A stretch of 64,000 nucleotides of DNA from Minisyncoccota bacterium (GTDB lineage Bacteria; Patescibacteriota; Minisyncoccia; Phycocordibacterales; Phycocordibacteraceae): assembly GCA_041658485.1 (NCBI GenBank), contig JBBAAE010000003.1:10300-74299 (forward strand), in the 5' to 3' direction. The notes below the pieces were generated by a model, which saw nothing but the letters and a program-made list of their open reading frames with translations, was not told the DNA's origin and ran no database searches. Positions 3,764 to 60,161 of this stretch are shown piece by piece (the stretch's first letter is position 1; every line of letters begins with the position of its first letter). A program made the position numbers and the translations under genes.

Positions 3764-3890
3764 GATATACTTGGAAACATTGTACTCCCTGACTTAGACT
3801 TGATTCCACTCTATGGAGAACGCTACGGGAGACATAGGGATTCATCATGATAATTATTAGTCTTTGTACCCAGCGTTCGTAGTCTCTCGT

Positions 3891-5003
3891 ATGGATTTCT
3901 CTCTCAGCACACTGTCTGAAAAATTTAAACAGCTCGCTTCATCTTTTAGTGTGAAAGATGGTGAGAGTGTTCTTGGTATTGATATCGGAACTTCATCCAT
4001 CAAAATTGTGCAGGTAAAGGAGGTGAAGGGGAGTGCTGTCTTGGAGACATACGGAGAGATTGCACTTGGTCCATATGCAAATGCCGAAGTGGGACAATCG
4101 GTGATGCCTCCACCTGAAAAAATTGGGGAAGCTTTGAAAGACGTGCTCCGTGAGGCAAACGCGACAGCAAAAATTGGCGGATTCTCGGTACCACTTTCTG
4201 GAAGTCTCATTAATGTCATCACACTCCCTACAAAAGATCATGCCGATTTGGCAACTATGATTCCAATAGAGGCTCGCAAATATATTCCTGTGCCAATTAC
4301 AGAAGTGGCGCTCGACTGGTTCGTGATACCTGAGGAAGAAGCGAAATTTTTAAGTCCACAAGGGGGTGTTCCAAAATCAGATCACTCAACCGATGTGCTT
4401 CTTGTCGCGATCCACAACGCAGTCCTTGCTAAATATCAGCTTATTACAGAAGCGGCCGCTATTACACCGCGGTTTTTTGAGGTAGAGCCATTTAGCATGG
4501 GGCGAGCTTCTTATGAACACACCACTGCGCCTGCAATGATTATTGATATGGGAGCATCATCGACTCGTGTATATATTATTGAATTTGGCATTATCGATGT
4601 TTCGCACACCATAGGTCGTGGCGGACAAGATTTAACGCTCTCACTGGCAAAGTCAATGGGCGCTACATTTCAAGAGGCTGAAAATATAAAAAGGGATAAA
4701 GGTTTGTCTGAATCTGAGGTGGGATCCGCGGCGCTTGACTTCATATTTGCTGAAGCCCGTCGTATTTTGTTGACGTACCAGCGTAAAGAAGGGAAAGCGG
4801 TATCGCAAGTAGTTCTTGTAGGAGGAGGAGCTTCTTTGAAAGGTTTGAAGGAGGTAGCTTCGCGTTCTTTTGATGCACGGATTGTCATTGCTTCTCCGTT
4901 TGAAAAGTTAGCTGCACCCGCGTTCATTTCTGATGTACTCAAGGGCGCTGGTCCATCCTTTGCTTCCGCTGTCGGACTCGCACTTCGTGCGTTGCATCAA
5001 TAA
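3891..5003 (+). CDS. pilM: Type IV pilus assembly ATPase-fold protein PilM
   Basis: Actin-like fold signature VLGIDIGTSSIKIVQV. ATG at 3891 is preferred over the TTG at 3864. First gene of the pilMNO cluster. Confidence 0.8.
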   Translation: MDFSLSTLSEKFKQLASSFSVKDGESVLGIDIGTSSIKIVQVKEVKGSAVLETYGEIALGPYANAEVGQSVMPPPEKIGEALKDVLREANATAKIGGFSVPLSGSLINVITLPTKDHADLATMIPIEARKYIPVPITEVALDWFVIPEEEAKFLSPQGGVPKSDHSTDVLLVAIHNAVLAKYQLITEAAAITPRFFEVEPFSMGRASYEHTTAPAMIIDMGASSTRVYIIEFGIIDVSHTIGRGGQDLTLSLAKSMGATFQEAENIKRDKGLSESEVGSAALDFIFAEARRILLTYQRKEGKAVSQVVLVGGGASLKGLKEVASRSFDARIVIASPFEKLAAPAFISDVLKGAGPSFASAVGLALRALHQ

Positions 5004-5054
5004 AAAAGCGTTTAGTGGTTAGGCGATGCCACATCGGGTCCGTAGGGACCATTT

Positions 5055-5130
5055 AGCGTTTAGGGAAAAACTTTTTGTATTAGCTTTTGCTGTTCACACT
5101 AACCCCTAATCACTAACCCCTACCCACTAG
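5055..5130. repeat. REP-like intergenic repeat built from TTAGGG/CCCTAA-type units
   Basis: agcgtttaggg ... cactaacccctaatcactaacccctacccactag. Related copies at 11601, 55131, 56849 and 58038. Confidence 0.6.
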
Positions 5131-5151
5131 TTTGAGTGTTACACTTTCCAC

Positions 5152-5793
5152 ATGGACGATCGTGTCACGACATCTTTTATACCTAAGGCTGCGCTCAAGG
5201 TTGAACGCACTGAAGCCAAACGAGCAAGCCCTGTTGCACTCGTAAACATAATTGCTGGCGCGATTCTTATTGTTACCATTCTTTCTGCGGGTGGTATTTT
5301 TGGTTTTGAAAAATATTTAATACAATCGGTTGAAAGTAAACGGCAATCTTTGGAGCGTTCGCGTGCAGCCTTTGAACCTGCAACCATAAAAGAACTTTCG
5401 CGTCTTGATACAAGGATTGCAGCGGGGAGTACACTTCTTAAAAATCACACGGCTCTCTCACAGCTTTTTGATGAGCTTGAGAAGCTTATGCTGACCAATG
5501 TACGATTTAGTAATTTTTCTTATGACATCGCAGACCCAACCAGAACCTTACTCTCAGCATCCGGCGAAGCTGCTAGTTTTAATGCAGTTGCACTCCAGTC
5601 AGACGCATTTAGCAAGAGTAGTATCATTACCGATCCAGTGTTTTCAAATGTGAATATATCGAAGACGGGTAGCATACTGTTTGAATTCACCGCAGTCATT
5701 GATACGACTCGCATAGGGTACACAGGAGTGAGTGCTACGCCCACAGAAGCTCTACCTACAAGTGTGCCACCAACATCACCACAAGGAATATGA
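5152..5793 (+). CDS. pilN: Type IV pilus assembly protein PilN-like (single TM plus coiled coil)
   Basis: N-terminal TM segment (IIAGAILIVTILSAGGIF), then a coiled coil. Position follows pilM. ATGA overlap with the next gene. Confidence 0.6.
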   Translation: MDDRVTTSFIPKAALKVERTEAKRASPVALVNIIAGAILIVTILSAGGIFGFEKYLIQSVESKRQSLERSRAAFEPATIKELSRLDTRIAAGSTLLKNHTALSQLFDELEKLMLTNVRFSNFSYDIADPTRTLLSASGEAASFNAVALQSDAFSKSSIITDPVFSNVNISKTGSILFEFTAVIDTTRIGYTGVSATPTEALPTSVPPTSPQGI

Positions 5794-6332
5794 AACTTTT
5801 TACCCCAATTCTTTTTCTCGGTCTCGCTGGCGCAATATTTTTTTGGTATATAAACCCAACATATTTAGGTCTTCAAGGTTCATTAGCTGAACAAGCACAA
5901 TTTGATGCTGCACTATCGCGTTCTCGAGAACTTCAAGATGTCCGTGATCAACTCTTGAGTCGTTACAACACATTTCCACAGCCCGATTTAGCTCGCCTAC
6001 AAAAACTGGTTCCCGACCATGTTGATAATGTACGACTCATCCTTGATTTTGATAGCATGGCGACCAAATACGGTATGCGTGTCAGAAATGTAGTTATTGA
6101 AACCCCAAAAGAGCGAGTCAGTAGAGGACAAATAGGTCCTGATGAGAAGACATACGAGTCCGTTATCTTGTCTTTTAATGTCAGCGGTTCTTACGATACA
6201 TTCAGGCAATACCTCGCTGACCTAGAGAAAAGCCTCCGTCTTGTGGATGTGGTAGGTCTTTCTTTCACTGCAAACGAGACAGGTATTTACGAATTCACCT
6301 TCCATATTAAAACCTATTGGCTCAAACCATGA
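5790..6332 (+). CDS. pilO: Type IV pilus assembly protein PilO-like
   Basis: N-terminal TM, 180 aa, synteny pilM-N-O. ATGA overlap at both ends. Confidence 0.55.
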   Translation: MKLFTPILFLGLAGAIFFWYINPTYLGLQGSLAEQAQFDAALSRSRELQDVRDQLLSRYNTFPQPDLARLQKLVPDHVDNVRLILDFDSMATKYGMRVRNVVIETPKERVSRGQIGPDEKTYESVILSFNVSGSYDTFRQYLADLEKSLRLVDVVGLSFTANETGIYEFTFHIKTYWLKP

Positions 6333-6655
6333 TTGATTTATTTAAAAAATTCAAAACGGTCATCATAGTGGTACTCCTAATTGCCATTGCTTTTGTTATA
6401 TATTCATATTTCTTTGCGAAACCAGCCGAGCCTGTTTTGTCAGCACAAGCAGTGTCGGCTATTCCCTCTGTTGATCAGGACCTTATAGCAATCCTTCTTG
6501 AGCTTAAATCAATTAAACTCGATGACGCTATTTTCTCAGACTCTGCCTTTAAAAGTTTACAAGATTTTAGCCAAGAGCTCGTACAGGAACCGGTCGGACG
6601 CAACAACCCCTTTGCTCCACTTGGGGCTAAACAGCTCACTCCGCAAGTGAGATAA
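6329..6655 (+). CDS. Small single-TM pilus-locus protein (PilP-like position)
   Basis: ATG at 6329 overlaps the pilO stop. TM helix (VIIVVLLIAIAFVIYSYFF). Located between pilO and pilB. Confidence 0.4.
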   Translation: MIDLFKKFKTVIIVVLLIAIAFVIYSYFFAKPAEPVLSAQAVSAIPSVDQDLIAILLELKSIKLDDAIFSDSAFKSLQDFSQELVQEPVGRNNPFAPLGAKQLTPQVR

Positions 6656-6659
6656 CACT

Positions 6660-8438
6660 ATGGATGTTCTTTCCCTCCTCTCGGAGAAAGGTCTCGTTGA
6701 TAAAAATGCTCTTGCTGGCATTAAAGAAGAGATTGCAACAAGTTCCAAAACTCTTGAGAAGGCCCTCTTAGATAGGGGAGTATCTCCGAGTGACATTCTT
6801 AGTGCTCGGGGTGAGTATTACTCAGTACCAACGCATGAGATTGGTGAGGACGTAGTCCCTTTTGCTGTACTGAACTATATTCCAGAAGAATCTGCTCGTC
6901 ATTACCGCTTTGCCCCCCTCGCATTGAATGATGGCGTACTTGAGGTTGGTACTACTGACCCAGATAACCTTGATGCAGTAGAAGCACTTAATTTCATTGC
7001 TTCGCGCACAAATGTTCCGTATAAGATATTTCTTATCTCCGATGAAGACTTCGACAAAATTATTGGAATGTACAAAGGTCTTTCTGGTGAGGTTGGGCAG
7101 GCACTCGGAGAATTACAAAGCACGGCTGGAGATGATGATGAACTCAGTGTGGCTCTCGAGGAAGCGCCAAGCGAGAAACTTACTGATGCTGAAAAAGGAA
7201 ATGTCAAAATAAAAGAAGACGCTCCCGTTACAAAAATTGTTGCAACTATTCTTCGGTATGCCGTTGATGGTAAGGCGTCCGACATTCACATAGAACCAAC
7301 GCGCGAGGAATTGAAGGTTCGTTTTCGTGTTGACGGCGTCTTGTACACGTCTCTCCGACTACCAAAAAACCTAGAGCGTTCTGTTATTGCGCGTATTAAG
7401 GTACTTTCATCACTCAAGCTTGACGAGAGAAGAAAGCCACAAGACGGTCGTTTTTCTGCAACCATAGATGCGAGACGCGTAGACTTTCGTGTATCAACAT
7501 TTCCAACCTATCACGGCGAAAAGGTGGTGATGCGTATTTTGGATCGTCGACTTCAAACACAAAAACTCAATGACATTGGACTGACGGACGAAAACTCTGA
7601 AACGATTCGAAAAGCAATTAAAAAGCCTTACGGAATCATTGTTATTTCTGGTCCAACAGGTTCTGGTAAATCGACAACACTGTATGCGATGCTTCAGGAG
7701 CTTGATCGTGAGGGAATGAATGTTGTCTCTCTTGAAGACCCGGTCGAGTACGACATCGATGGGGTGTCTCAGTCACAGGTACGCCCAGAAATCGGCTATA
7801 CATTTGCATCGGGACTCCGCTCCATATTGCGTCAAGACCCGAACATTATTATGGTGGGAGAAATTCGCGACAAAGAGACAGCACAGCTTGCCATTCAAGC
7901 CGCACTCACTGGACACCTAGTTCTCACCACGCTTCACACCAATAATGCCATTGGTATCGTGCCCCGACTCGTTGACATGGGCGTTGACCCATACTTGATT
8001 GCGCCGACGCTCATTCTATCTATCGCTCAGCGACTTGTGCGTCTTCGCTGTGAAGATGCTGGTAAGCCTATTCCTTTTGAGGGTGCTGTTGCTACTATGA
8101 TTGAAAAGGAATTCGCTGATATTCCTGCTGAATTTAAGAAAAAACTTCCCGCAGCAAAAACTGTCTACGGTATTGCTCCATCTCCAACCTGCGCTAATGG
8201 TACTCGTGGGCGTGTTGCGGTGTTTGAAATGTTGCCTACATCGCCTGAACTAGAGCACATCATTCTTACTAACCCAATTGAAGATGAATTGTACAAAGTG
8301 GCGCGTGCACAAGGCATGTTCACGATGAAAGAGGATGCTATTATGAAAATGCTTAAAGGCACTATTCCTTTCGAAGAAGTGAACACGCTTGGTGGTGAAC
8401 TTCTTCGCGACGAGGAAGCCGACGAAAAATTGCCGTAA
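6660..8438 (+). CDS. pilB: Type IV pilus assembly ATPase PilB (GspE family)
   Basis: N-terminal GSPII_E N domain, Walker A GPTGSGKSTT, Asp box, His box (LVLTTLHTN), tetracysteine-like region. Confidence 0.9.
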   Translation: MDVLSLLSEKGLVDKNALAGIKEEIATSSKTLEKALLDRGVSPSDILSARGEYYSVPTHEIGEDVVPFAVLNYIPEESARHYRFAPLALNDGVLEVGTTDPDNLDAVEALNFIASRTNVPYKIFLISDEDFDKIIGMYKGLSGEVGQALGELQSTAGDDDELSVALEEAPSEKLTDAEKGNVKIKEDAPVTKIVATILRYAVDGKASDIHIEPTREELKVRFRVDGVLYTSLRLPKNLERSVIARIKVLSSLKLDERRKPQDGRFSATIDARRVDFRVSTFPTYHGEKVVMRILDRRLQTQKLNDIGLTDENSETIRKAIKKPYGIIVISGPTGSGKSTTLYAMLQELDREGMNVVSLEDPVEYDIDGVSQSQVRPEIGYTFASGLRSILRQDPNIIMVGEIRDKETAQLAIQAALTGHLVLTTLHTNNAIGIVPRLVDMGVDPYLIAPTLILSIAQRLVRLRCEDAGKPIPFEGAVATMIEKEFADIPAEFKKKLPAAKTVYGIAPSPTCANGTRGRVAVFEMLPTSPELEHIILTNPIEDELYKVARAQGMFTMKEDAIMKMLKGTIPFEEVNTLGGELLRDEEADEKLP

Positions 8439-8440
8439 TT

Positions 8441-8842
8441 ATGGAGCCAACTACTCAAAAAAACTATTCCATTCTTCTCGTCGATGACGATCGATTTCTT
8501 TTGGATATGTATACATTGAAGTTTAAAAACGAAGGGCATACTGTTGAAGCAATTCCAGACCCTAATCTTGCTCTTGAAAAACTGCGAAAAGGTTTTTTGC
8601 CGAACATTATTTTGCTTGATGTTGTAATGCCGGGGGTATCAGGATTTGAGCTCTTGGAGATAATTAAAAAAGAAAATCTTGCGAAAGGTGCAGTAATTGT
8701 AATGCTCACCAATCAAGGTCTTCAAGAAGATATAGACAAAGGAATGAAGTTTGGTGCATCTGGCTACATCATTAAGGCAAGTTCAATACCTTCTGAGGTT
8801 TTGCAAAAAACATTGGCAATTGCTGCGACGCAGCTTACATAA
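8441..8842 (+). CDS. Stand-alone response regulator receiver (CheY/PilH-like)
   Basis: ILLVDDDRFLLDMY...LLDVVMPGVSGFELL receiver motifs. No output domain. Confidence 0.8.
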   Translation: MEPTTQKNYSILLVDDDRFLLDMYTLKFKNEGHTVEAIPDPNLALEKLRKGFLPNIILLDVVMPGVSGFELLEIIKKENLAKGAVIVMLTNQGLQEDIDKGMKFGASGYIIKASSIPSEVLQKTLAIAATQLT

Positions 8843-8844
8843 TT

Positions 8845-9906
8845 ATGGAATACAAATCCGAACTTGAATCGCTTATAGATACTGTTATTGCTGAAGGAGC
8901 ATCCGATTTACATATAACTGCAAATTCCAATCCCATCATTCGCACTTCGGGTACGCTTATACCACTTCTGAAGCGTGTAAAATATACACCTGAAGATACT
9001 CTCGGAATCTTGGGCGCACTCATTCCGCCAGAAAAATTACAATCATTTAAGCAGGATCAAGAGGTAGATTTTTCGTATCAGTATAAAGATCAAATGAGGT
9101 TTCGTGGCAATGCATTCTTTCAGCAAGGAACAGTGTCCATTGCGCTTCGTTTGATTCCAAGAGAAATCAAGTCACTTGAAGAATTGGGGCTACCTCCAAT
9201 TCTTGAGACATTTTGCCAATTACAGCAAGGTTTTTTCTTGGTTGTGGGTCCTGTTGGTCAAGGAAAATCAACGACACTTGCGTCAATGGTGGAAAAAATA
9301 AACCAAACACGCACTGAGCACATTATTACTATTGAGGATCCGATTGAATACATGTTCACATCGAAAAACTCAATTATCAATCAGCGTGAAGTGCGACTCG
9401 ATACTAAAACATTTCAAGCGGCTCTTCTTTCCGCGTTCCGCGAAGACATCAATGTGCTCATGGTGGGGGAAATGCGTGGACCTGAGACCATGGCAGCAGC
9501 AGTGACCGCAGCTGAAACTGGACACCTCGTGCTTTCAACACTGCACACCAACAATGCTGCTCAGACCATTGATCGTATTATCGATACATTCCCAACGGGT
9601 CAGCAGGATCAAATCCGTCTTCAACTTGCTGCATCATTGGCAGGGATATTCTCACAGAGACTTGTTCCTAGGATATCGGGAGGCCTCATTCCTGCATATG
9701 AGCTTTTGATTAATAATGATGCAGTGGCAAATCTTATCCGTGAAAAGCGTACCCATGAAATTAATGCAGTGATTGAAACAGGTACGGAGTCGGGCATGAT
9801 TGACATGAATCGCTGTCTTGCTGACTTGGTGCGTCGCGGAGAAGTTACGCCGGAGAATGCACTTTCGAGAACATGGAATCCTAAGGCATTTTCGCGCCTT
9901 ATGTAA
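8845..9906 (+). CDS. pilT: Twitching-motility ATPase PilT
   Basis: Walker A GPVGQGKSTT, LVLSTLHTN, PilT-like length (353 aa). Confidence 0.9.
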   Translation: MEYKSELESLIDTVIAEGASDLHITANSNPIIRTSGTLIPLLKRVKYTPEDTLGILGALIPPEKLQSFKQDQEVDFSYQYKDQMRFRGNAFFQQGTVSIALRLIPREIKSLEELGLPPILETFCQLQQGFFLVVGPVGQGKSTTLASMVEKINQTRTEHIITIEDPIEYMFTSKNSIINQREVRLDTKTFQAALLSAFREDINVLMVGEMRGPETMAAAVTAAETGHLVLSTLHTNNAAQTIDRIIDTFPTGQQDQIRLQLAASLAGIFSQRLVPRISGGLIPAYELLINNDAVANLIREKRTHEINAVIETGTESGMIDMNRCLADLVRRGEVTPENALSRTWNPKAFSRLM

Positions 9907-9918
9907 TGTATAGATTGT

Positions 9919-11127
9919 ATGCTCTTTAAATACCAAGCAATTGATGCAAGTGGAGCAAAGCAAGAGGGGAGTATTGATGCAATATCCCGTGATGTTGCTA
10001 TTGCTTCGCTCCAGCGTCGCTCACTCACTATCTCAGCAATTGAAGAGTCTGATCCTGAAAAAAAATCTTTGTTGGGCGGTATTACTTTGTTTGAAAGTGT
10101 TACGAATCGCGACATTGTTTTATTGTCACGCCAAATCGCGACATTGTTCGAAGCTCAAGTGTCCGCGCTTCGCGTGTTTCGTCTTCTTGCATCAGAATCT
10201 GAGAAGCCTCTTTTGGGCCGAGTCTTGACTGAGGTAGGAGATGATCTTCAGTCAGGTAGTCCAATATCTAAAGCGTTATCAAAACACCCGAAAGTTTTTA
10301 GTGCATTTTATGTGAACATGGTGAAAGCTGGCGAGGAGTCAGGCAAGCTTGATGAGACATTTCTCTATCTTGCCGATTACCTCGATCGATCATACGAAGT
10401 GATGAGTAAGGCAAAAAATGCACTCATCTATCCCGCCTTTGTTATAGCGACATTTTTTGTAGTTATGATTCTTATGATGACCATGGTCATCCCACGTATT
10501 TCTTCCATTCTTATCGATGCAGGACAAGCAATACCCGTGTACACGCAGGTAGTTATATCTATCAGTAACTTTTTTGTGAACTACGGAGTGTTCCTTCTCA
10601 TACTTCTCGTTGTTGGAGGCATATTTCTTTTCCGCTATGCAGGTACTCCTCAAGGACGCGCATCATTCAGTGCTTTTGAGCTCGCTATTCCCTATGTGGG
10701 CGATTTATACAAGAAGCTTTATCTATCGCGCATCGCTGACAACCTTGCCACGATGCTTGGGTCGGGTATTTCTGTGGTGCAAGCTGTTGACGTGACGGCA
10801 AATGTTGTAGGCAATGCAGTCTATGCAGATATTTTGCAGGAAGTCGCAAATTCAGTGAAGGGAGGAGGTTCAGTATCTGGAGCTCTCGAAAAACGTAAAG
10901 AGGTACCTGGGATTATGGTTGCAATGATGCGCGTCGGTGAAGAGACGGGTGAATTAGGTAGTATCTTAAAGACTCTTGCGAAGTTTTATCAGCGAGAGGT
11001 TTCAACGAGCGTAGATACACTCGTTGGTCTTATTGAGCCAATTATGATTGTGACTTTAGGTTTGGGGGTTGGTATACTGTTGGCATCGGTCTTGGTGCCG
11101 ATCTACAATCTCTCCGCCGCTATTTAA
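9919..11127 (+). CDS. pilC: Type IV pilus inner-membrane platform protein PilC (GspF family)
   Basis: Two GspF repeats with 3 TM segments, 402 aa. Confidence 0.85.
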   Translation: MLFKYQAIDASGAKQEGSIDAISRDVAIASLQRRSLTISAIEESDPEKKSLLGGITLFESVTNRDIVLLSRQIATLFEAQVSALRVFRLLASESEKPLLGRVLTEVGDDLQSGSPISKALSKHPKVFSAFYVNMVKAGEESGKLDETFLYLADYLDRSYEVMSKAKNALIYPAFVIATFFVVMILMMTMVIPRISSILIDAGQAIPVYTQVVISISNFFVNYGVFLLILLVVGGIFLFRYAGTPQGRASFSAFELAIPYVGDLYKKLYLSRIADNLATMLGSGISVVQAVDVTANVVGNAVYADILQEVANSVKGGGSVSGALEKRKEVPGIMVAMMRVGEETGELGSILKTLAKFYQREVSTSVDTLVGLIEPIMIVTLGLGVGILLASVLVPIYNLSAAI

Positions 11128-13158: not shown

Positions 13159-13844
13159 AAAAAACTACGCAAAGCACCTATACGAAAGACCACTCCGGGG
13201 CGTTTGCCCGAGTCTCAGTCTTTCGTATAGGTGCTTTGCTCCGCACGGGTGGAAAGGGAACAGCGCGGGGATTCACTCTGATTGAGATGATGGTTGCGGT
13301 AACAATATTCGCCATTGTTATGATGATTGGGGTTGGTGGGTTATTGTCGCTTGTGGCTACAAACCATCGTGCGCAGGCAATCCATTCAGTCATGAACAAC
13401 CTGAGTGCAGCAGTCGAAGGTATGTCACGATCCATTCGTGTAGGCACCTTATATAATTGTGTTACTTCTGCCACAACACCCCCATCCCCTCCGCCATCTT
13501 CAACAATTGCAAATCCACAAGATTGCGCTTTGGGTGGAGCTCGTCTTCTTGCGTTTGAGTCGTCAACGGGCAATTTGACCGACGCGAATGACCAAGTTGT
13601 CTATCGGTTAAATGGTACACAACTTGAGCGTTCTTTGCGTGGCGGTGCTAACGGTAGTTGGATTGCGATTACTGCGCCCGAAGTTTCAATTGATAGCTTT
13701 GATTTTTATGTTGTTGGCTCAGCGAAAGGAGATGGTATACAGCCCCGTGTTCTTATGCGCATTAAGGGTTCGGCGGTAGTTCCGGGGGGTACAACTACAT
13801 TTACCGTGCAGGCAAGTGTTGTTCAACGCGTTCTTGATATTTAA
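13155..13844 (+). CDS. Minor pilin (pseudopilin 2) with a roughly 40-aa leader
   Basis: ...GKGTARG|FTLIEMMVAVTIFAIVMMIG. ATGA overlap with the upstream gene. Confidence 0.7.
   Translation: MKKTTQSTYTKDHSGAFARVSVFRIGALLRTGGKGTARGFTLIEMMVAVTIFAIVMMIGVGGLLSLVATNHRAQAIHSVMNNLSAAVEGMSRSIRVGTLYNCVTSATTPPSPPPSSTIANPQDCALGGARLLAFESSTGNLTDANDQVVYRLNGTQLERSLRGGANGSWIAITAPEVSIDSFDFYVVGSAKGDGIQPRVLMRIKGSAVVPGGTTTFTVQASVVQRVLDI
13170..13238. repeat. 21-bp perfect inverted repeat inside the pseudopilin-2 leader coding sequence
   Basis: caaagcacctatacgaaagac (13170-13190) and gtctttcgtataggtgctttg (13218-13238), separated by a 27-nt spacer. Confidence 0.8.
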
Positions 13845-27511: not shown

Positions 27512-27778
27512 ATGAATGAAAAAGAATTGGAAAAGATTTTTAAAGCGTTTGCAAATCGTCGCCGACTTTTAATCGTTAAATTTTTGAAAAAGCATAAAGA
27601 AGCCTCAGTAGGGGAGGTTGCAAGAGAAATTAAACTTTCTTTCAAATCAACCTCTCGGCACTTAAGTGTTCTTGCGGGTGCGGGCATTCTTGATCGGGAA
27701 CAAAAAAGTATTCATATGTATTATTCAATTACGCCCACTATCCCTGAAGTCGCTCGTCGTATTCTTACCCTTCTATAG
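27512..27778 (+). CDS. ArsR/SmtB-family HTH transcriptional regulator
   Basis: FKAFANRRRLLIVKFL...ASVGEVAREIKLSFKSTSRHLSVLAGAGIL is a winged-HTH of the ArsR family. GGAGG RBS upstream. Confidence 0.75.
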   Translation: MNEKELEKIFKAFANRRRLLIVKFLKKHKEASVGEVAREIKLSFKSTSRHLSVLAGAGILDREQKSIHMYYSITPTIPEVARRILTLL

Positions 27779-27825
27779 ACACGATACATTCACCCATTCG
27801 TACGAATGGGTGAATGTATCGTGTC
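27778..27825. promoter_or_regulatory. 48-bp perfect palindrome (24-bp arms) centred on CATTCGTACGAATG
   Basis: gacacgatacattcacccattcgta|cgaatgggtgaatgtatcgtgtc overlaps the arsR stop. Candidate bidirectional terminator and second operator. Confidence 0.7.
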
Positions 27826-30039: not shown

Positions 30040-30044
30040 GAGGT

Positions 30045-30191
30045 ATGTCGTTTTCGCCTGAAGTATGGCGAGAAGGTTTGGCTCCAGCGGTTGTTCTTGG
30101 GGGTGTAGCAGGTGCATCCTTCTTACTTTATCTATTAGGAGGAGAGAAGGTCTCTAAGTGGCTTGAAAAGAGAAGAAAGAAGAAAAAATGA
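30045..30191 (+). CDS. Small membrane protein (48 aa) with a Lys-rich C-terminus
   Basis: ATG preceded by AGGAGG. MSFSPEVWREGLAPAVVLGGVAGASFLLYLLGGEKVSKWLEKRRKKKK. Confidence 0.35.
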   Translation: MSFSPEVWREGLAPAVVLGGVAGASFLLYLLGGEKVSKWLEKRRKKKK

Positions 30192-30297
30192 AGGATTGAC
30201 GGATGCTTTAAAAGCGGTAATAGTGTCAGTGTAGCGACTAAAAAGAGGGTATAAAGGGCACTTGACAGATATTAATTAGTCTGCTACTATATAGAAT

Positions 30298-30555
30298 ATG
30301 TTATCACCTGAAAATTTGAGACAAGATGCGCTTTTTGCTGCTGAGGTTGCCCTTCCTTTAGTTGGTGCTGTTGCACTATACGCATCGCGTACTGTAAGGG
30401 GGTTTGCCATGAAAGGGGTCGAATCAATTATTCGTGCTGGGAAAATTGAAGATGAAATGAGTACGTACCCTGAGCTCACATTAGGTGAAGCACGTGGATT
30501 TGTTACTGCCGAGGAGCAAATACAGAAAGAAGATGAGCGACGCATGGCAGTGTAA
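30298..30555 (+). CDS. Hypothetical protein
   Basis: ATG ORF of 85 aa, followed by a terminator. No recognisable domain. Confidence 0.35.
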   Translation: MLSPENLRQDALFAAEVALPLVGAVALYASRTVRGFAMKGVESIIRAGKIEDEMSTYPELTLGEARGFVTAEEQIQKEDERRMAV

Positions 30556-30595
30556 ATATACTGATTGCGTATTGGTGCTTCTCGAGGTATTCTCT

Positions 30596-30621
30596 AAAAA
30601 GCTCCGTGCGGAGCTTTTTTC
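30596..30621 (+). terminator. Rho-independent terminator
   Basis: aaaaagctccg-tg-cggagc followed by T6. Confidence 0.65.
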
Positions 30622-30626
30622 TTAGA

Positions 30627-30798
30627 GAGCTCGTCTCAAAAATAATGACTTAGCGAAAAGACGAAATTTCAGAGCGAAAAACGAGGATGAGGAAAGATTC
30701 GATGCAAAGCATCGAAGACAGACGAAACTCGTTTTGTAGCTGAAATTTCGTCTTTCTCGGTAGTCAAAGCTTCTTAAGTTTATTTTTGAGACGAGCTC
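30627..30798. repeat. 172-bp nested inverted-repeat element in the typA 5' leader
   Basis: Outer 19-bp perfect arms gagctcgtctcaaaaataa / ttatttttgagacgagctc. Inner arms gacgaaatttcag / ctgaaatttcgtc. Innermost cgatgc-aaa-gcatcg. Ends 15 bp before the typA ATG. Confidence 0.75.
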
Positions 30799-30812
30799 GT
30801 AATTCAAAACAT

Positions 30813-32594
30813 ATGGAAATACGAAACATCGCTATCATTGCCCATGTGGACCATGGGAAGACCACTCTTACCGACGCCCTTTTGAAACAAACAGGTGTGG
30901 GTGAAGAGGGGGTATCAATGGATTCAAACAAGCTTGAGCTCGAGCGCGGAATCACTATTTATGCAAAGAATGCAGCGGTTCCTTATAAGGATACAAAGAT
31001 AAACATTGTTGACACTCCAGGACACGCCGACTTCGGCTCTGAAGTTGAACGCGTACTCCGCTCCATCGATTCAGTGCTTCTCGTAGTTGATGCACAGGAA
31101 GGGCCTATGCCACAGACTCGTTTCGTATTGAAGAAGTCATTGGAGCTTGGTTTGAAGCCAATTGTTGTTTTAAATAAAATTGATAAACCAGCGGCTGACT
31201 GCGCTCGTGCAGAGGAGCAGGTTTTGGAACTTTTCTTGGAACTTGGTGCAAATGATGAACAGGCAGACTTTCCAGTGATCTATGCCATTGGTAAGCAAGG
31301 TATTGCAAAAGCAAAATTGGAAGATGATTCAAAAGATTTGACGCCACTTCTCGACGCCATTTTGAAGTATGTACCACCAGCTCCCGCAACTGCAGCTGAG
31401 GGCACACTGATGATTCAGCCATTCAACCTTGCATATGACAACTTCCTTGGTCGCATTGCAATTTGTCGCGTCTACCATGGCACTGTGACTACAGGTCAGT
31501 CAGTATTCATAAAAAAACCTGACGGAGAAATGCGCACAGGGAAAATAGTGAAAATGTTTACCTTTAAGGGCCTTCAGAGAGTTGAAGCAGAGTCGGTAGG
31601 TGCAGGTGACATCTGTATGATTGCGGGTCTTTCAGATATTTATATTGGTGAGACAGTAACAAACGACAAGGATGCACAGCCACTTCCTGCAATCACTGTT
31701 GATGAACCAACAATTCAACTCAATTTCTATCCGAACTCTTCACCATTTGCAGGTAAAGAAGGGAAATTTGTAACCACTCGCCAAATTAGAGACAGGCTTG
31801 AGAGAGAGCTTGAAGTGAATGTAGGTCTCAAGGTTGATTTCTCTTCAGGTGAAACATTTTTGGTGTCTGGTCGTGGAGAGCTTCATATTGCAATCTTGCT
31901 TGAGAATATGCGTCGTGAAGGTTTCGAACTCCAAGTCTCACAACCGAAAGTAATCATTCGAGAAGAAAATGGTCAGAAGATGGAACCGTTTGAAGAGGTT
32001 ACTGTTGATTCTCCATCAGAATTCCAAGGTCCTATTATTGAGCGCCTCGGTGTTCGTGCATTCGTAATGCAAAACATGGTTACTCATGGCAACTCAGTTC
32101 GTCTTACATTTGAAGGTCCTACTCGTGGCCTTCTTGGATTCCGTAATCAGTTCATCATTGATACTAAAGGTGAGGGAATACTTTCGTCACGCTTTATTGG
32201 CTTCAAACCATACGCAGGTGAAATCAAGAAGCGTTCAGTAGGTTCTATGATTTCTATGGCAGCAGGAAAGGCTCTTGGATTTTCACTTTGGAACTTGCAG
32301 GATCGTGGCACGCTCTACATTGGTCCTACTACAGAAGTGTATGAAGGTATGGTGGTGGGTAATACTTCAAAGGGTGAAGAGATGTCAGTGAACCCAACAA
32401 AAGGAAAACAGCTCACCAACATGCGTGCATCAGGCTCCGACGAAGCAATCAACATCACCCCTCCCTTTACACTTTCTATTGAGCGCGGTCTTGAAATAAT
32501 GTCTGACGATGAATTTTTGGAAATCACCCCTCTCAATATTCGTCTTCGCAAGCAATTTTTGTCTGAAAGCGAGCGAGCGAAAGCAAAACGATAA
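30813..32594 (+). CDS. typA: Translational GTPase TypA/BipA
   Basis: [31 protein letters not shown]-domain motifs plus EF-G-like domains. 594 aa from the ATG at 30813. Confidence 0.9.
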
Positions 32595-34936: not shown

Positions 34937-36415
34937 ATGTATAACTCAGATAGTAATAGTAAAGGTAAGTTTTCACGTGCTCCGCGAACTTCTCGAGGAG
35001 ATTCTTTTCATGCGCCAAGTGGTCAACGAAGTGCATCACGCGCGCCATATAGCGGTGCGTCTGGTCCCAGTAGGTCTTCTTTTGCACCAAGCGCTCGTCC
35101 GTATCAAGGAGGAGGTCGTTCAAGTGGAGGAAGTGGTGCTCGCCCATACCAAGGCGGAAGCTCTCGTCCTTATCAGGGCGGTGGTAGCCGACCGCCATAC
35201 AGAGGCGGTGGTGGATCGCGTTTTGGTGGGGGAGGTGGCAGTCGTTACGGCGGAGGCGGTGGAGGTAGAGGGGGAGGAGGTCGCTCATTCGATAAATACA
35301 TTGATGCATCTCGCTTTGTAAACAAGGCAGTTATTACAGAAAAAGTAGAACACTTCGTTCCTGAACACGCATTTGCTGATTTCAAGGTAGATGAACGACT
35401 GAAGACTGCTATTAGCAAAAAAGGATACGTTCTTCCTACGCCCATTCAAGACAAAGCTATTCCTCATATTCTTCGCGGTGAAGATGTAGTTGGTATTGCA
35501 AACACTGGTACTGGAAAAACAGCGGCATTTTTGATTCCGCTCATTGACAAGATGCTGAAAAATCCTGAGGAAGAAATACTCATTATGGTTCCTACACGTG
35601 AACTCGCACTCCAGATTGAACAAGAGTTCCGTGGATTTGCTCCCGGACTTCGTTTGTACTCAGCGTGTTTCGTAGGAGGTGTCTACATTGGTAAAGATTT
35701 GCAGAAGCTTCGCCAGAGAAACAATCTTGTGATTGGTACACCTGGGCGCTTGAAAGACTTGGTAGAGAGACGCGCACTTAATCTTTCAAAATTCAAGACC
35801 GTAGTACTCGATGAAGCAGATCGCATGCTCGACATGGGCTTCATTGCTGATATGCGCTTCATGCTTTCAAAGATGGAACCAGTGCGTCATACGCTTTTCT
35901 TCTCGGCAACTTTGACTAAAGAAATTGAAAAACTGATTAAGGATTTCTTGACCAATCCAGTTACTATTTCAGTGAAAACACAAGAAACAGCTGAATCTAT
36001 TGATCAGGATGTGGTTAAGGTGAGCTCTGATGAGACAAAAATAGATGTCTTGCTAAATCTTTTGAAGCAACCTGAATTCGACAAAGTGCTTGTCTTCGGA
36101 AAGACGAAGCATGGAGTTGAAAAACTTGCGAAAGCGCTCGTTGCGATGGGGGTGAAGGCTGAATCTATTCACGGAAACAAAACTCACGGAAAGCGACAAA
36201 AAGCATTGGATCTTTTCAAACGAGATCAAGTGCAAGTGCTTGTGGCAACTGATGTTGCTGCACGAGGTCTCGACATCGTCGGTGTTTCTCATGTCATCAA
36301 CTTCGACATTCCTTCAACCTATGAAGATTATGTGCACCGCATTGGACGTACTGGTAGAGGTGGCAAGAAAGGGAAAGCGCTTACTTTCGTTGAGCAGAAG
36401 GGCGGACGCCGTTAA
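34937..36415 (+). CDS. DEAD-box ATP-dependent RNA helicase with a roughly 110-aa N-terminal RGG/YQGG low-complexity tail
   Basis: N-terminus ARPYQGGG...SRPYQGGGSRPPYRGGGGSRFGGGGG..., then Q-motif F..F, AxTGTGKT, DEAD (VLDEADRML), SAT, HRIGRTGR. Confidence 0.9.
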   Translation: MYNSDSNSKGKFSRAPRTSRGDSFHAPSGQRSASRAPYSGASGPSRSSFAPSARPYQGGGRSSGGSGARPYQGGSSRPYQGGGSRPPYRGGGGSRFGGGGGSRYGGGGGGRGGGGRSFDKYIDASRFVNKAVITEKVEHFVPEHAFADFKVDERLKTAISKKGYVLPTPIQDKAIPHILRGEDVVGIANTGTGKTAAFLIPLIDKMLKNPEEEILIMVPTRELALQIEQEFRGFAPGLRLYSACFVGGVYIGKDLQKLRQRNNLVIGTPGRLKDLVERRALNLSKFKTVVLDEADRMLDMGFIADMRFMLSKMEPVRHTLFFSATLTKEIEKLIKDFLTNPVTISVKTQETAESIDQDVVKVSSDETKIDVLLNLLKQPEFDKVLVFGKTKHGVEKLAKALVAMGVKAESIHGNKTHGKRQKALDLFKRDQVQVLVATDVAARGLDIVGVSHVINFDIPSTYEDYVHRIGRTGRGGKKGKALTFVEQKGGRR

Positions 36416-36645
36416 TTTTGTCTTCACTCTTTGACTTACGGTGAGTCAGCACGTATGATGAAAAAAGTCGCACGCTCTTAGCAGTCTAAAAAATAATCTA
36501 TCTACAAGTATGGATACAGATACACCAGTAGTGCCAGATGTTCCTATGGAACCTGCACACGAAGTACCAGCTCCTGCAATGCCGGAAGTAGCGCCAGAAG
36601 CGCCAACTCCAGCTACTGAAGGTACAGTAGCGTAGTCTTTAAAAA

Positions 36646-36679
36646 AGCGAGGCTGGGGAAACCCAGTCTCGCTTTTTTT
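36646..36679 (+). terminator. Rho-independent terminator
   Basis: agcgaggctggg-gaaa-cccagtctcgct followed by T7. Confidence 0.65.
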
Positions 36680-36752
36680 GTGTACGATGTTGCTTTTTCG
36701 ATTGCATAATTGTTTTCATCCTTAAGGCAGTGTATCCTTTAGTGAAAGGTAT

Positions 36753-36914
36753 ATGGCTGAAACTGGTGGTGCATTAGAAAAACTGAAAGTACCCCAACGC
36801 CCACGCTTTGTTTGTGAGGGATGTGATATGGCTGTGTATTTGGAAGATCCATGTCCACAATGTGATTTTGAAGAATACAGGAAAACATTACGAGCTTCAG
36901 GTAATAAGGAATAA
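36753..36914 (+). CDS. Small zinc-ribbon protein (53 aa)
   Basis: ATG..TAA ORF MAETGGALEKLKVPQRPRFVCEGCDMAVYLEDPCPQCDFEEYRKTLRASGNKE with CxxC...CxxC. Confidence 0.35.
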   Translation: MAETGGALEKLKVPQRPRFVCEGCDMAVYLEDPCPQCDFEEYRKTLRASGNKE

Positions 36915-36924
36915 CTAATTTTTT

Positions 36925-37383
36925 ATGAAAAAATACATTTTTGCCTTCTTACTACTTGTACTTCTTGGAGTGGGTGCATACTTTCTCTACCCACTTCTAG
37001 CGCATGCTCCTGCCTCTACTACTTCTACACAAACAAGTGCCCCAACATATGTGCGTGCATCAGCTAACGACATAGTTGTTGCTTCACCAAAACCAGATGA
37101 AACCCTAGGTTCCATCGTTGATGTTTCAGGGCGTGCTCGGGGAACTTGGTACTTTGAAGCAAGTTTTCCTGTTGAAGTTGTTGATGACAAAGGTGCAGTG
37201 CTTGGGCGGGGGATAGCAACTGCACAAGACGAGTGGATGACAGAAGAGTTTGTTCCTTTCACTGCAACAATTACACTCACCACTCCTTATACTGGTCCAG
37301 CAATGCTCATCCTCAAAAAAGACAATCCATCGGGTGAGTCATCTCGTGATGCTTCTATTTCTATACCAGTACTAATTCAATAG
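36925..37383 (+). CDS. Secreted Gmad2-like immunoglobulin-like domain protein
   Basis: TM/signal then GTWYFEASFPVEVVDDKGAVLG...WMTEEFVPFTATITL, the Gmad2 pattern. Confidence 0.5.
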   Translation: MKKYIFAFLLLVLLGVGAYFLYPLLAHAPASTTSTQTSAPTYVRASANDIVVASPKPDETLGSIVDVSGRARGTWYFEASFPVEVVDDKGAVLGRGIATAQDEWMTEEFVPFTATITLTTPYTGPAMLILKKDNPSGESSRDASISIPVLIQ

Positions 37384-39734: not shown

Positions 39735-39783
39735 TAAACTGTTTTTGGTGTCTGTAGAAGGTACATCTGAGAATGTGATCTCA

Positions 39784-39845
39784 AACCCCTGTATAGTATA
39801 AAATAACGACCGTTATTTTATACTATACAGGGGTTTTGTTTTATT
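39784..39845. terminator. 54-bp near-loopless perfect palindrome followed by a T-tract (terminator or protein-binding site)
   Basis: aaacccctgtatagtataaaataacg-ac-cgttattttatactatacaggggttt then tgttttattt. Confidence 0.7.
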
Positions 39846-48130: not shown

Positions 48131-48952
48131 ATGACGCAACACGCACTTTCTTCTGTGGGAGGATTCCGAAAGATAGTGTTGACTTTTTTCAAGAAAAAAG
48201 GACGGCATACGCTTCCTTGGCGCCACACGCATGACCCTTATAAGATTCTTGTCTCGGAAATCATGCTCCAACAAACCCAAGCAGATAGGGTCATTCCAAA
48301 ATACAAATTGTTTATAAGAAAATTTCCAACAGTACAGGCACTTGCTACAGCATCTCTCGGTGATGTGCTACGAGAATGGCAGGGCTTAGGCTACAATCGC
48401 AGGGCAAAGATGCTCCATGAGGCCGCCAAAGTAATAGTTACAAACTATGGCGGGAAAGTGCCTACTCTTTACAGTGAGCTTGTCGAACTGCCCGGCATTG
48501 GTGATTACACCGCAAAAGCAGTTCGTGTATTTGCATGGAATGAACCGGAGGTAATGATTGAAACCAACATACGTACTGTTTTCATTCATCATTTTTTTCC
48601 AAATAAAGTTGCGGTGAGCGATAAAGAATTACACCCATATATGGGTGAGTTTTTGGATACGAAAAATCCACGAGAATGGTATTTCGCATTAATGGATTAT
48701 GGAAGTTATTTGAAAAAAATAGTACCAAATCCATCACGAAATAGCGCACATCACACGAAGCAGAAGTCTTTCAAGGGCTCTGACAGGGAAGTGCGCGGAG
48801 CTATACTTCGCGCACTTGTTTCGCGGTCGAAATCTTTGCCAGCTCTTTTAAAAGAACTTAATTTTCCACAAGATAAAATAAAAAGACAAATTACTGCACT
48901 CAAGAAAGAGGGCTTAATTGTGATTCGAAAAAATAAAGCACAGTTACCCTAA
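48131..48952 (+). CDS. MutY-like A/G-specific adenine glycosylase (HhH-GPD domain only, no NUDIX domain)
   Basis: ILVSEIMLQQTQADRV is the MutY hallmark. HhH LPGIGDYTAKAV. 273 aa. Confidence 0.7.
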   Translation: MTQHALSSVGGFRKIVLTFFKKKGRHTLPWRHTHDPYKILVSEIMLQQTQADRVIPKYKLFIRKFPTVQALATASLGDVLREWQGLGYNRRAKMLHEAAKVIVTNYGGKVPTLYSELVELPGIGDYTAKAVRVFAWNEPEVMIETNIRTVFIHHFFPNKVAVSDKELHPYMGEFLDTKNPREWYFALMDYGSYLKKIVPNPSRNSAHHTKQKSFKGSDREVRGAILRALVSRSKSLPALLKELNFPQDKIKRQITALKKEGLIVIRKNKAQLP

Positions 48953-48993
48953 CTACTCCGATTAATCGGAGTAGTTAGGCTTTAATGCTTGGT

Positions 48994-56894: not shown

Positions 56895-56936
56895 ATCCAC
56901 AACAAAACCCCGCATTCGCGGGGTTTTGTTGTGGAT
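56895..56936 (+). terminator. Terminator hairpin after groEL
   Basis: atccacaacaaaaccccgc-attc-gcggggttttgttgtggat; a 19-bp stem with an internal T-run. Confidence 0.6.
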
Positions 56937-57404
56937 GCGTCGCCTCGAGTAACAATCGGAGCTCTTGACAAATATGATTTATAAGATTATTCTGCGGGGA
57001 GAAGTTTTTATATTTTATTTTGAAAAGTATGGGTTCTGAAACAGCTCCAAAAAAATGTGCACGCGCGGGTTGCAACAATTTCGCTGCACCACATGATTCT
57101 CTTTGTTTAGATTGCATAACAAGAGCAGTGAGTGGTCCTGATTAGTTTTTTTCAACCCCAGAGCGGTTTTTTTCTATTAGAGGTTCTATTTATTGTTATA
57201 GTATCGAAATTATGTCTCACAAAAAGCCTGAAAAACATTATCCAAAAGATCGACATGAGGCTCGTGAACTCAGGGGCAGTTTCAAGGGTGTGGCTAAATG
57301 CATTAGGGATGGGTGGGCGTCCGTTCTTCGCGAATGGCGTAGGAATGAAATATCAAAAGCATAAATTATCGGGAAAATTAAAAATCTGATACAATGTAAA
57401 GAAT

Positions 57405-57965
57405 ATGAATATTCTTTACATTGTTCTTGCTGTAGTCGCTGTCGTTCTTGCATGGCTTGTTGCCGCATATAACGGCTTTATTAGTTTGAGAAACCGAGCA
57501 AAAGAAGCGTGGTCTGACATTGAGGTACAGATGAAGCGTCGTTATGACCTCATTCCAAACCTTATTGAAACAGTAAAGGGCTACGCGACACATGAAAAGC
57601 AGGCATTTGAAAATGTTTCGAATGCACGCGCTACCGCTATGGGTGCGTCATCTGTTGCTGATCACGCACAGGCAGAAAATATGCTTACAGGAGCATTGAA
57701 GAGCATCTTTGCAATTGCAGAAGCGTATCCAGACTTGAAAGCAAATCAAAACTTCTTGGAATTACAACGCGAACTCTCTGATACTGAAAATAAAGTAATG
57801 GCATCTCGCCGTTTCTACAACACCAATGTTATGAGCTTGAATACTGCTATCGAGCAGTTCCCAGGAAACCTTATTGCGGGCCTATTCAAGTTCACACAAA
57901 TGGAACTCTTTGAGCTTGCCGAAGGCGAACAAGCTGCGAAACAACCTGTCGCAGTGAAATTCTAA
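57405..57965 (+). CDS. lemA: LemA-family protein
   Basis: N-terminal TM then the LemA domain (AYNGFISLRNRAKEAWSDIEVQMKRRYDLIPNLIETVKGY). Confidence 0.85.
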   Translation: MNILYIVLAVVAVVLAWLVAAYNGFISLRNRAKEAWSDIEVQMKRRYDLIPNLIETVKGYATHEKQAFENVSNARATAMGASSVADHAQAENMLTGALKSIFAIAEAYPDLKANQNFLELQRELSDTENKVMASRRFYNTNVMSLNTAIEQFPGNLIAGLFKFTQMELFELAEGEQAAKQPVAVKF

Positions 57966-58954: not shown

Positions 58955-59028
58955 GAGTAGGCGAGTATACGAAAACGGTACAAGAAGTGATTTGATATAT
59001 CAAATCACTTCTTTGCATACATATAGTA

Positions 59029-59308: not shown

Positions 59309-59346
59309 TACACCTAACAAGCGAGTGCACTCGCTTGTTAGGTGTA
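59309..59346. repeat. 38-bp perfect loopless palindrome
   Basis: acacctaacaagcgagtg|cactcgcttgttaggtgt, preceded by a ttcccc-tagat-ggggaa hairpin. Confidence 0.7.
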
Positions 59347-59854: not shown

Positions 59855-59939
59855 GGAGGCGTCGGATAGCGGTTTATTCCACCACCTTGGAAAGGTGGCG
59901 TACCGAAAGGTACCGAGAGTTCGAATCTCTCCGCCTCCG
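59855..59939 (+). tRNA. tRNA-Ser (anticodon GGA)
   Basis: Acceptor stem GGAGGCG/CGCCTCC, D-arm, anticodon stem CCACC/GGTGG with loop TTGGAAA, long variable arm GTACCGAAAGGTAC, T-arm GAGAG-TTCGAAT-CTCTC, discriminator G. No encoded CCA. Confidence 0.85.
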
Positions 59940-59992
59940 CAAAATAATGAGCCCAATGTGTAAGCATTGGGTAATTATATTTTTGCGTGAAG

Positions 59993-60008
59993 GCGGAGAG
60001 ATTCGAAG
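59993..60008. repeat. Inverted partial copy of the tRNA-Ser T-arm/acceptor region
   Basis: ggcggagagattcgaa is the reverse complement of ttcgaatctctccgcc. Confidence 0.6.
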
Positions 60009-60161
60009 TGAGCATCGGGACCCGAGCCAGCAGGCGAGGGTGATGCGAGGTGGAAGAAACACGAACTGCTTCATGTTTCTTCCGGTTTCGCAAAGCGAAA
60101 ATGGCTTATGCCGTAGGCAAGCCATAGGTGGGCAGGCGGAGACATGAGCGACGGTGAATGT

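Follow-up and report, generated by a model that had tools for sequence, protein, structure and literature searches.

What is a 172-bp sequence, able to fold on itself almost from end to end, doing directly upstream of a core translation gene in a bacterium of the Patescibacteria, whose genomes are small and streamlined? The question is raised by a 64-kb stretch of DNA from a Minisyncoccota bacterium (the window, meaning the whole 64,000 nucleotides analysed), in which a nested inverted repeat at positions 30627-30798 precedes typA (bipA). A first-pass annotation, made from the letters of the sequence, had offered two answers, a structured leader that might act as an RNA thermometer and a miniature inverted-repeat insertion. 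The evidence gathered here favours the second. With a probability of about 0.7, the feature is a non-autonomous mobile DNA element similar to MITEs (miniature transposable elements with inverted repeats), and represents a new family of a known kind. Throughout the text, L-numbers designate other loci or assemblies in which the element, its relatives or the corresponding empty sites were read.

The element is non-coding and forms a hairpin over nearly its whole length (Table 1). The perfect 19-bp outer arms described in the first-pass annotation were confirmed, being 100% complementary and separated by 134 nt; with as many as 3 mismatches allowed, the arm matched nowhere else in the 64-kb window, and none of 100 shuffled sequences gave two or more arm matches. 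Some of the finer measurements required correction: the inner repeat extends over 16 bp and not 13 bp, two 8-bp stems take the place of a single innermost 6-bp stem, and the right arm ends 14 nt, not 15, before the ATG. The single long hairpin that had been proposed was recovered by the RNA fold of 30620-30830, with a predicted energy of -80.4 kcal/mol (z = -8.9) on the + strand and -74.6 kcal/mol (z = -8.3) on the - strand; no shuffled sequence matched these energies for either strand, and both strands of the element fold about equally well. The open reading frames (ORFs) within it are mechanical only, of at most 61 aa and not kept between family members, and a promoter and terminator scan detected no signal of either type belonging to the element itself.

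The same element was found at the same typA site in two further independent assemblies, L009 and L017, and is therefore not an assembly artefact. This observation bears on the proposal that the repeat is a local palindrome created by replication template switching, or an error of assembly, which would fit the abundance of long perfect palindromes in the window. The presence of the element in three independent assemblies, together with the same 17-21-nt ends on elements at unrelated loci and in other phyla, makes this origin extremely improbable.

Occupied and empty sites upstream of typA

The element is missing at the typA site in eight relatives, including L002, L005, L006, L072, L073, L075 and L077. 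In these relatives a promoter-like pair is followed by a short hairpin and a T-run, with the ATG only 1-14 nt further on; the place of this ATG after the short spacer is taken in L006 and L073 by a duplicate typA start that has decayed. The promoter-like pair (TTGnnn-17 nt-TAnnnT) was placed 4-6 nt before an AAGCYCC hairpin in all seven of them and in L017, the hexamers holding their position while the spacer sequences differ. In the window these hexamers are weak (7/12) and were not listed by the promoter scan. The short hairpin of the relatives reads AAGCYCC-loop-GGRGC, then TTTTTTC(T/G/A)TA (also rendered AAGCYCC...GGRGCTTTTTTC(T/G/A)TA), and its stem preserves pairing through a compensatory change in L077 (AGCCCC/GGGGCT). 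It is this short hairpin, and not the 172-bp element, that behaves as a conserved leader, being present directly before typA in every relative read.

Since the relatives share the promoter-like site, the short hairpin and TTTTTTCTTA but have no element, the 172-bp sequence is, by comparison of the aligned sites, an insertion that interrupts a conserved and very short typA leader in one Patescibacteria lineage. The same alignment puts the point of insertion after the small conserved hairpin, between its trailing T-run/CTTA and the start codon. Moreover, removal of the element and of one TA from the window leaves TTTTTTCTTA-ATTCAAAACAT-ATG, which resembles the TTTTTTCTTA-CTTGAAACAAA-ATG of L006. 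The only carriers at this site are the window, L009 and L017, whose typA third codon positions differ by 23-30% among themselves, while the element-less relatives differ from the window by at least 51% at these positions.

The first-pass annotation had also placed a terminator directly before the element. A hairpin followed by a T-run is indeed found there (30596-30619), and its presence in the relatives suggests that it is a conserved 5′ feature of the typA transcript and does more than terminate the upstream ORF. Because it is conserved in the leaders of the relatives, and because L017 has a separate terminator upstream of its typA promoter, this hairpin probably represents the 5′ end of the typA transcript, which would be driven by the promoter-like site at 30565-30593 and would start near 30599-30600.

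The leader module resembles a terminator located at the very 5′ end of an mRNA, could be a 5′ stabiliser or an attenuator, and matched no Rfam family. In the relatives it was placed at 2940-3012 in L002, at 9925-9990 in L005, and upstream of typA in L072, L075 and L077, the ATG following it at a distance of 4-14 nt. In L006 (9841-10000) and L073 (~9830-10000), the loop of the leader hairpin holds a structured insertion of ~60 nt, whose inner hairpin covaries (AACAAAAAATCAC/GTGATTTTTTGTT versus AACAATAATC/GATTATTGTT). In both, the decayed duplicate of the typA start (ATGGAAATTCGAAAC.. / ATGAAAATCAGAAAC..) comes before another covarying hairpin and the real ATG, which gives an upstream ORF of 22-28 codons; the synonymous codons of the duplicate differ. 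The 5′ end of typA seems to be a hotspot for hairpin insertions.

BipA is needed at low temperature in E. coli, and the position of the element, 14 nt from the start codon of such a gene, was what made a thermometer or a leader masking the typA ribosome-binding site attractive. The distribution of the element speaks against it: conservation upstream of typA, named in the first-pass annotation as the check on a leader, was confined to the window, L009 and L017, and the element is missing before typA in the relatives outside this clade. The predicted structures agree. When the 5′ untranslated region (UTR) was folded together with the start region, the initiation region was not paired with the element, and both the minimum free energy and the centroid folds left 30799-30830 outside its hairpin; no Shine-Dalgarno sequence (SD) was found in the 14-nt spacer, nor before typA in the relatives. 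Folds from the inferred transcript start to typA +60 were computed at 5, 15, 25, 37 and 45 °C, and the predicted mean unpaired probability between -14 and +15 around the AUG was flat over this range, at 0.58-0.63 against 0.57-0.64 for a reconstructed empty allele. The element alone was predicted to keep ~60 pairs up to 80 °C. Known thermometers (ROSE, fourU, cspA-type) are short, weak, mismatched hairpins that contain the SD or the AUG, and their likeness to the element is limited to a 5′ UTR position near a start codon; the element, in contrast, is predicted to form a ~60-bp duplex of -78 kcal/mol from which the initiation region is excluded. As the start is predicted to be unmasked, no melting is expected at physiological temperatures, and the element is missing from most typA leaders, the thermometer and conserved-leader readings were rejected, and masking of the ribosome-binding site is considered highly improbable. 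In terms of annotation, neither a conserved riboswitch nor a thermometer should be assigned to the typA leader of the window.

A family with shared ends at unrelated loci

The 19-mer of the arm was scanned against 185,579 species genomes (one genome per species) and a 17-mer against metagenomes. At six or seven other loci, these scans retrieved elements 154-172 bp long whose partner arm agrees at 14-19 of the 19 positions; the remaining ~50 metagenome matches had no partner arm and were read as chance. Ends of 17-21 nt bound the elements in L008, L010, L044, L050, L059/L062 and L061, the terminal repeat common to the family being GAGCTCGTCTCAAAAATA and the 21-bp end AGAGCTCGTCTCAAAAATAAT. The host of L061 is a Flavobacteriales-like Bacteroidota, and the family is therefore not confined to Patescibacteria. 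The interiors are 43-56% identical between subfamilies and each folds end to end into a hairpin, with apical hairpins of differing sequence set between purine-rich motifs, GAGGAGG-like 5′ and CGACGAA 3′, in the window, L044, L050 and L059. All copies seen are intergenic, usually 14-70 nt before a start codon, and their orientation relative to the neighbouring gene varies. Judged by these ends and interiors, several Patescibacteria and one Bacteroidota genome contain, at intergenic sites that are unrelated, members of a family with shared ends and differing interiors.

A search with a hidden Markov model (HMM) of the family found no second copy in the window and a diverged copy of 259 nt, belonging to the same subfamily, in the related L006 (15281-15539), located directly behind a terminator hairpin, with a Gmad2-domain gene beginning 15 nt further on. 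Its arms are ~88% identical to those of the window (an estimate from the alignment), its apex is larger and branched, and the orthologous Gmad2-side spacer of the window (36415-36925) is empty. Similarly, L061 and L081-83 carry the element in the rpoN-tfoX spacer, which is empty in L084 and L086/87 (ThrA proteins 76-78% identical); the empty allele reads ...GTGTTTTACGATTGG, and the occupied allele reads ...GTGTTTGTA, then the element, then TTTCGATTGG. Together, the empty typA sites, the same ends at unrelated loci, the diverged copy in L006 and the occupied/empty pair in Bacteroidota support the miniature inverted-repeat insertion proposed in the first-pass annotation.

Both ends of the L006 copy are altered in the same way (AGAAYCYATCTCAAAAATAAT), and an open frame of 67 codons starts at an ATG inside its left end; a protein search with this frame matched only itself. 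In the complete genome that holds the groEL copy, positions 341-375 of L010 (GAGCTCTTCTCAAAGAAATGATTGAGACGAA, 85 nt before ychF) look like a collapsed pair of element ends, either a footprint or a solo remnant. The groEL of L010 (2023-3678) is split into two ORFs of 188 and 361 aa by a stop at 2587-2589, for which a sequencing error, a pseudogene or recoding may account.

The junctions of the copies were compared across the family. L008 is flanked exactly by TA/TA, the elements of the window and L044 each lie between two TAs with 1-3 extra nt, and the left junction carries TA within 3 nt at six of the seven family loci. Direct flanks at the ends were AA/AA in L044 and AC/AC in L059, the remaining loci showing no clean duplication, and neither 5-bp (Tn3-like) nor 8-bp (ISL3-like) duplications were present in the flanks of the family loci. 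As they read, the junctions favour a TA target. In addition, the window (GCTTTTTTCTTAga), L044 (CCTTTTTTCTTAcaa) and L006 (GATTTTTTACTAa) share a T-run motif that abuts the left end of the element; because an 11-nt identity at two unrelated loci is unlikely to arise by chance, this motif was judged to reflect a target preference.

A different origin was also weighed, that of a stand-alone gene for a structured non-coding RNA, held once per genome and shifting in location between lineages. Such a gene would account for the single copy in each genome sampled, for the constant size of 154-172 nt, for ends that are kept across phyla around interiors that differ yet stay hairpin-shaped, and for the purine-rich motifs recurring round the apical hairpin in the window, L044, L050 and L059. 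It is nonetheless improbable, given the precise occupied and empty sites in two phyla, the similar folding of both strands with no strand-specific G.U excess (a count of 27 versus 32), the lack of a detectable promoter or terminator of its own, the decay of the helices in L059, and ends that are conserved as sequence and not by covariation. Nor was there an Rfam match: at gathering thresholds, Rfam 15 gave no hit in the window, and under permissive settings the top scores were 31 bits (threshold 94) for MIR1435, a miRNA hairpin model derived from a plant MITE, and 18 bits (threshold 80) for rli54.

Several specific RNA classes were considered and discarded. A hammerhead ribozyme (GAUGAGG...CGAAAC) would have the core CUGANGA...GAAA with C3 and U4, yet neither of these two positions is matched, and conservation is also lacking at G5 and A6 (AGGAUGA in the window, AAUUGA in L050); a 6S-like RNA would have a large central bubble, and the internal loops of the apex are all small and purine-rich; a conserved small peptide is disfavoured, since the mini-ORFs that follow the GAGGAGG-like motif share neither frame nor sequence; and the balanced counts of G.U and A.C mismatches give no sign of strand-specific selection on an RNA.

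Known mobile or replicative sequences were likewise set aside: integron attC sites (no R′/R″ boxes), REPIN/RAYT systems (no REP doublets), IS200/IS605 PATEs (whose hairpins are expected to be subterminal, those of the element being terminal) and ssoA-type origins (no CS-6 in the loop). The Tn3-derived TIMEs, with 38-bp GGGG...TAAG ends and a 5-bp duplication, were rejected as no 5-bp direct repeat was found at any locus. The first 16 nt of the element resemble the Tn21 end (GGGGTCGTCTCAGAAAA), a likeness of value as a lead only. A search among N-terminally extended TypA homologues for traces of insertion found no end-derived peptide.

The non-autonomous mobile element favoured here would have been moved by a trans-acting transposase recognising its 18-21-bp ends, and the TA at or near the junctions points to a possible IS630/Tc1-mariner-like enzyme. 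At the typA site, the element would now be co-transcribed from the conserved typA promoter, extending the 5′ UTR from ~35 nt to ~213 nt, and the RNA is predicted to fold on itself as an interrupted duplex rod of ~60 bp. This rod would leave the A/U-rich, SD-less initiation region as accessible as in the empty allele, and it is proposed that the insertion was tolerated for this reason. The rod would likely be a substrate of RNase III, cleaved at the paired ends as in Correia elements, and any effect on typA would be exerted through mRNA processing or stability and not through temperature sensing.

Slow evolution, low copy number and present function

Some of the properties by which MITEs are recognised were found in the element: terminal inverted repeats of at least 10-15 bp, a size within 50-800 bp with no transposase gene, and presence or absence at orthologous sites. 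Other observations weigh against a mobile element of this kind. Neither several copies per genome nor a cognate autonomous insertion sequence (IS) with the same ends was found. The window holds a single copy (at up to 3 mismatches and by HMM), the exact-match species scan returned one locus per genome, even in a complete genome of 1.05 Mb, and one diverged copy was present in 170 kb of DNA of the relatives. These figures refer to a profile search covering the 64-kb window and the 170 kb of relatives' DNA, and to genome-wide scans made with exact words. Multiple identical copies elsewhere in the genome, which the first-pass annotation had taken as the mark of a pure mobile element, were not seen in that form, each genome sampled having one. 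Moreover, the searches yielded no partner arm spaced as in an IS within 6 kb of any family locus, no transposase or integrase Pfam domain among the 20 window ORFs tested, no family member in plasmid, phage and viral collections, and a clean target-site duplication at one locus only, L008. Regarding evolutionary rate, the element shows 0/172 differences from L009 and 5/172 from L017 (167/172 identical), and in L017 two of the five changes amount to a compensatory replacement of an A-T by a G-C pair (30648/30764), the other three falling in loops; the L050/L062 element differs by 13%, where the genes on either side differ by 39-42% at their third positions. Such conservation is not what would be predicted for a selfish insertion undergoing plain decay.

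A candidate for a full-length IS with the ends of the element, a 15/18 match lying 1.6 kb away in L010, was rejected, as it precedes ychF and looks like a collapsed end remnant.

Compared with the window, typA third positions differ by 24% in L009 and 30% in L017, and another intergenic stretch (30040-30297) differs by 12.5%. The element thus evolves ~10 times more slowly than synonymous sites at typA and ~3 times more slowly at L050/L062, which reflects either exaptation or a recent spread by short recombination patches or homing. Under exaptation, the element would have arrived as mobile DNA and would now be a selected part of the typA 5′ UTR, acting as a module for RNase III processing or stability, or as a protein-binding rod. 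The contrast between 0/172 or 5/172 differences in the element and the 24-30% and 12.5% of its surroundings agrees with this, as do the changes of L017, which break no helix, and the slow locus of L050/L062. The carriers form one clade, for which a single old insertion is parsimonious, and this clade-restricted distribution fits selection on the insert.

Other data point to recombination. The window and L009 are identical, apart from 1 difference, over 30538-30853, a tract that reaches into the promoter spacer, where the other relatives differ. The typA distances are star-like (0.24, 0.30, 0.23), a pattern not seen in the differences among elements (0, 5, 5); this discrepancy, taken with the identical patch, points to at least one recent recombination patch and not to constraint alone. 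In the orthologous L050/L059 pair, nine of the 13 changed pairs were broken and four kept, a pattern that is, on the aligned copies, as expected for decaying DNA. The inconstant orientation to the neighbouring gene and a predicted start-site accessibility that is the same with or without the element also count against a selected function. Exaptation is possible but, on balance, unlikely; it overlaps with the mobile-element explanation and differs from it only on present function.

In the window, a type IV pilus gene set at 3864-11127 encodes a PilM-like protein, a T2SSE ATPase and a T2SSF platform protein. Judged from gene content, these genes are compatible with DNA uptake, and hence with a recombination patch at the typA leader.

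A broader and decidedly speculative proposal may also be formulated, in which the family is not ordinary selfish DNA but a low-copy hairpin module that seeks sites immediately downstream of T-run/TA in 5′ leaders (typA, groEL, gltX, rpoN), spreads between related species by homing or short-patch recombination and is kept by strong purifying selection as an mRNA-processing or protein-binding element used by the host. If true, it would constitute a horizontally mobile cis-regulatory RNA module common to Patescibacteria and Bacteroidota.

The features on which these considerations are based are collected in Table 1.

Table 1. Positions of the element, its parts, the surrounding typA leader, family members elsewhere and other palindromes (window coordinates unless a locus is named)
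Feature	Position	Strand	Sequence or remark
Element	30627-30798		172 bp
Left terminal inverted repeat	30627-30645		19 nt, GAGCTCGTCTCAAAAATAA
Right terminal inverted repeat	30780-30798		19 nt, TTATTTTTGAGACGAGCTC
Inner arms with enclosed apex	30657-30755		
Inner pair	30657-30672 / 30740-30755		16 bp, perfect, AAAGACGAAATTTCAG / CTGAAATTTCGTCTTT
8-bp stem	30678-30685 / 30728-30735		
Apical 8-bp stem	30698-30705 / 30709-30716		
Whole apex	30685-30727		
Apex, 5′ side	30685-30693		GGATGAGGA
Apical hairpin	30698-30716		TTCGATGC-AAA-GCATCGAA
Apex, 3′ side	30721-30727		GACGAAA
Left junction	30623-30626		TA (30623-30624) + GA
Junction at typA site			TTTTTTCTTA|ATTCAAAAC
Right junction and spacer	30799-30812	+	G + TA (30800-30801); 14 nt, A/U-rich
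Inferred typA promoter-like site	30565-30593	+	TTGCGT 30565-30570, 17-nt spacer, TATTCT 30588-30593
Short conserved hairpin and T-run	30596-30624	+	AAAAAGCTCCG-TG-CGGAGCTTTTT + TTTTTTCTTA
typA/bipA	30813-32594	+	ATG 30813; 593 aa, intact
L008 element			after a 397-aa ORF; contig 53% G+C
L010 element			between CIRCE operator and groEL; complete Moraniibacteriota genome
L044 element			28 nt before gltX; overlaps the stop codon of the upstream gene
L050 and L059/L062 elements			one orthologous site
L061 element			~17 nt before rpoN
Other window palindromes	39783-39836, 27778-27825, 13169-13239, 809-850, 59309-59346, 58982-59013, 48948-48979, 57391-57424, 56895-56936		

The typA gene of the window lies in the order purE, purM, purC, an 85-aa ORF, typA, an unknown ORF, genes for a thioredoxin-like protein, DsbB, a glyoxalase and a DEAD-box helicase, and a Gmad2-domain gene, an order that the relatives keep around typA. 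TypA homologues carry the Pfam domains GTP_EFTU, EFG_C and BipA_C; the closest named ones belong to Patescibacteria (Paceibacteria-type), with 96, 92, 90 and 88% identity, and the window protein has no exact match on record. The 85-aa ORF before typA (30298-30555) has no Pfam hit and evolves very fast, with 53% DNA identity to its L009 counterpart as compared with 91% for typA, and different small ORFs occupy its position in other relatives.

The window contains many other long perfect palindromes, with arms of 16-26 nt, several of them loopless and mostly placed just after gene ends. They are probably terminators, unusually long and perfect, and similar ones occur in L006. Elsewhere in the window, ARAGORN identified a tRNA-Ser(GGA) at 59855-59940 that was missing from the Rfam results at gathering thresholds. 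Copies of the 3′ part of this tRNA follow at 59979-60007 (inverted) and 60174-60188 (direct), and these repeats (region 59855-60188) look like leftover attachment sites of an integrating element; the next ORF encodes a FIST-domain protein and not an integrase.

Comparison with known systems

No sequence similarity of the element was found to Rfam, to plasmid and phage collections or to the literature searched, in which there was no description of miniature transposons in Patescibacteria, nor of this element family. The present results indicate that these bacteria, in spite of small and streamlined genomes, do hold miniature mobile elements, with ends shared with elements of Bacteroidota, and that the family settles in the leaders of core translation and stress genes. 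Moreover, the slow evolution of the insert, and a short patch that is identical in a genome whose silent sites have diverged by 24%, provide a concrete case in which recombination-mediated spread, or domestication, of mobile hairpins could be studied in uncultured episymbionts.

The Correia elements (CREE) of Neisseria resemble the element in being non-coding, ~100-200 bp in length, bounded by terminal inverted repeats and mostly placed just upstream of genes, and they have TA at their target. They are co-transcribed into 5′ UTRs, and the duplex of their paired ends is cut by RNase III (PMC10969869). Such cutting is described for Correia elements and only inferred for the element. In contrast to the one copy seen here, they exceed 100 copies per genome, reside in a different host and share no sequence similarity with the element, and their documented promoters and IHF site have no evident counterpart in it.

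The RUP elements of Streptococcus pneumoniae are also comparable in size (~100-170 bp), terminal repeats and TA target, RUP being an IS630-Spn1-dependent MITE for which a trans-acting IS630-family transposase is presumed. Their cognate IS is known and they reach dozens of copies or more, whereas no cognate IS was found for the element, which presents a clean TA duplication at one locus.

The ERIC/IRU sequences of enterobacteria are imperfect palindromes of similar size located in transcribed intergenic DNA in either orientation, and their copy number can be low, with the same sites occupied across strains (PMC10969869). They belong to another phylum, have no sequence similarity to the element and do not carry the conserved 19-bp perfect ends of this sequence. 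Finally, the Rickettsia palindromic elements (RPEs) are palindromes of ~100-150 bp in the reduced genomes of host-dependent bacteria, with no identified transposase (PMC10969869); they often insert in frame into genes, unlike the copies of the element, all of which were intergenic. These four systems, Correia, ERIC, RUP and RPE, are the nearest counterparts of the element in architecture and genomic habit.

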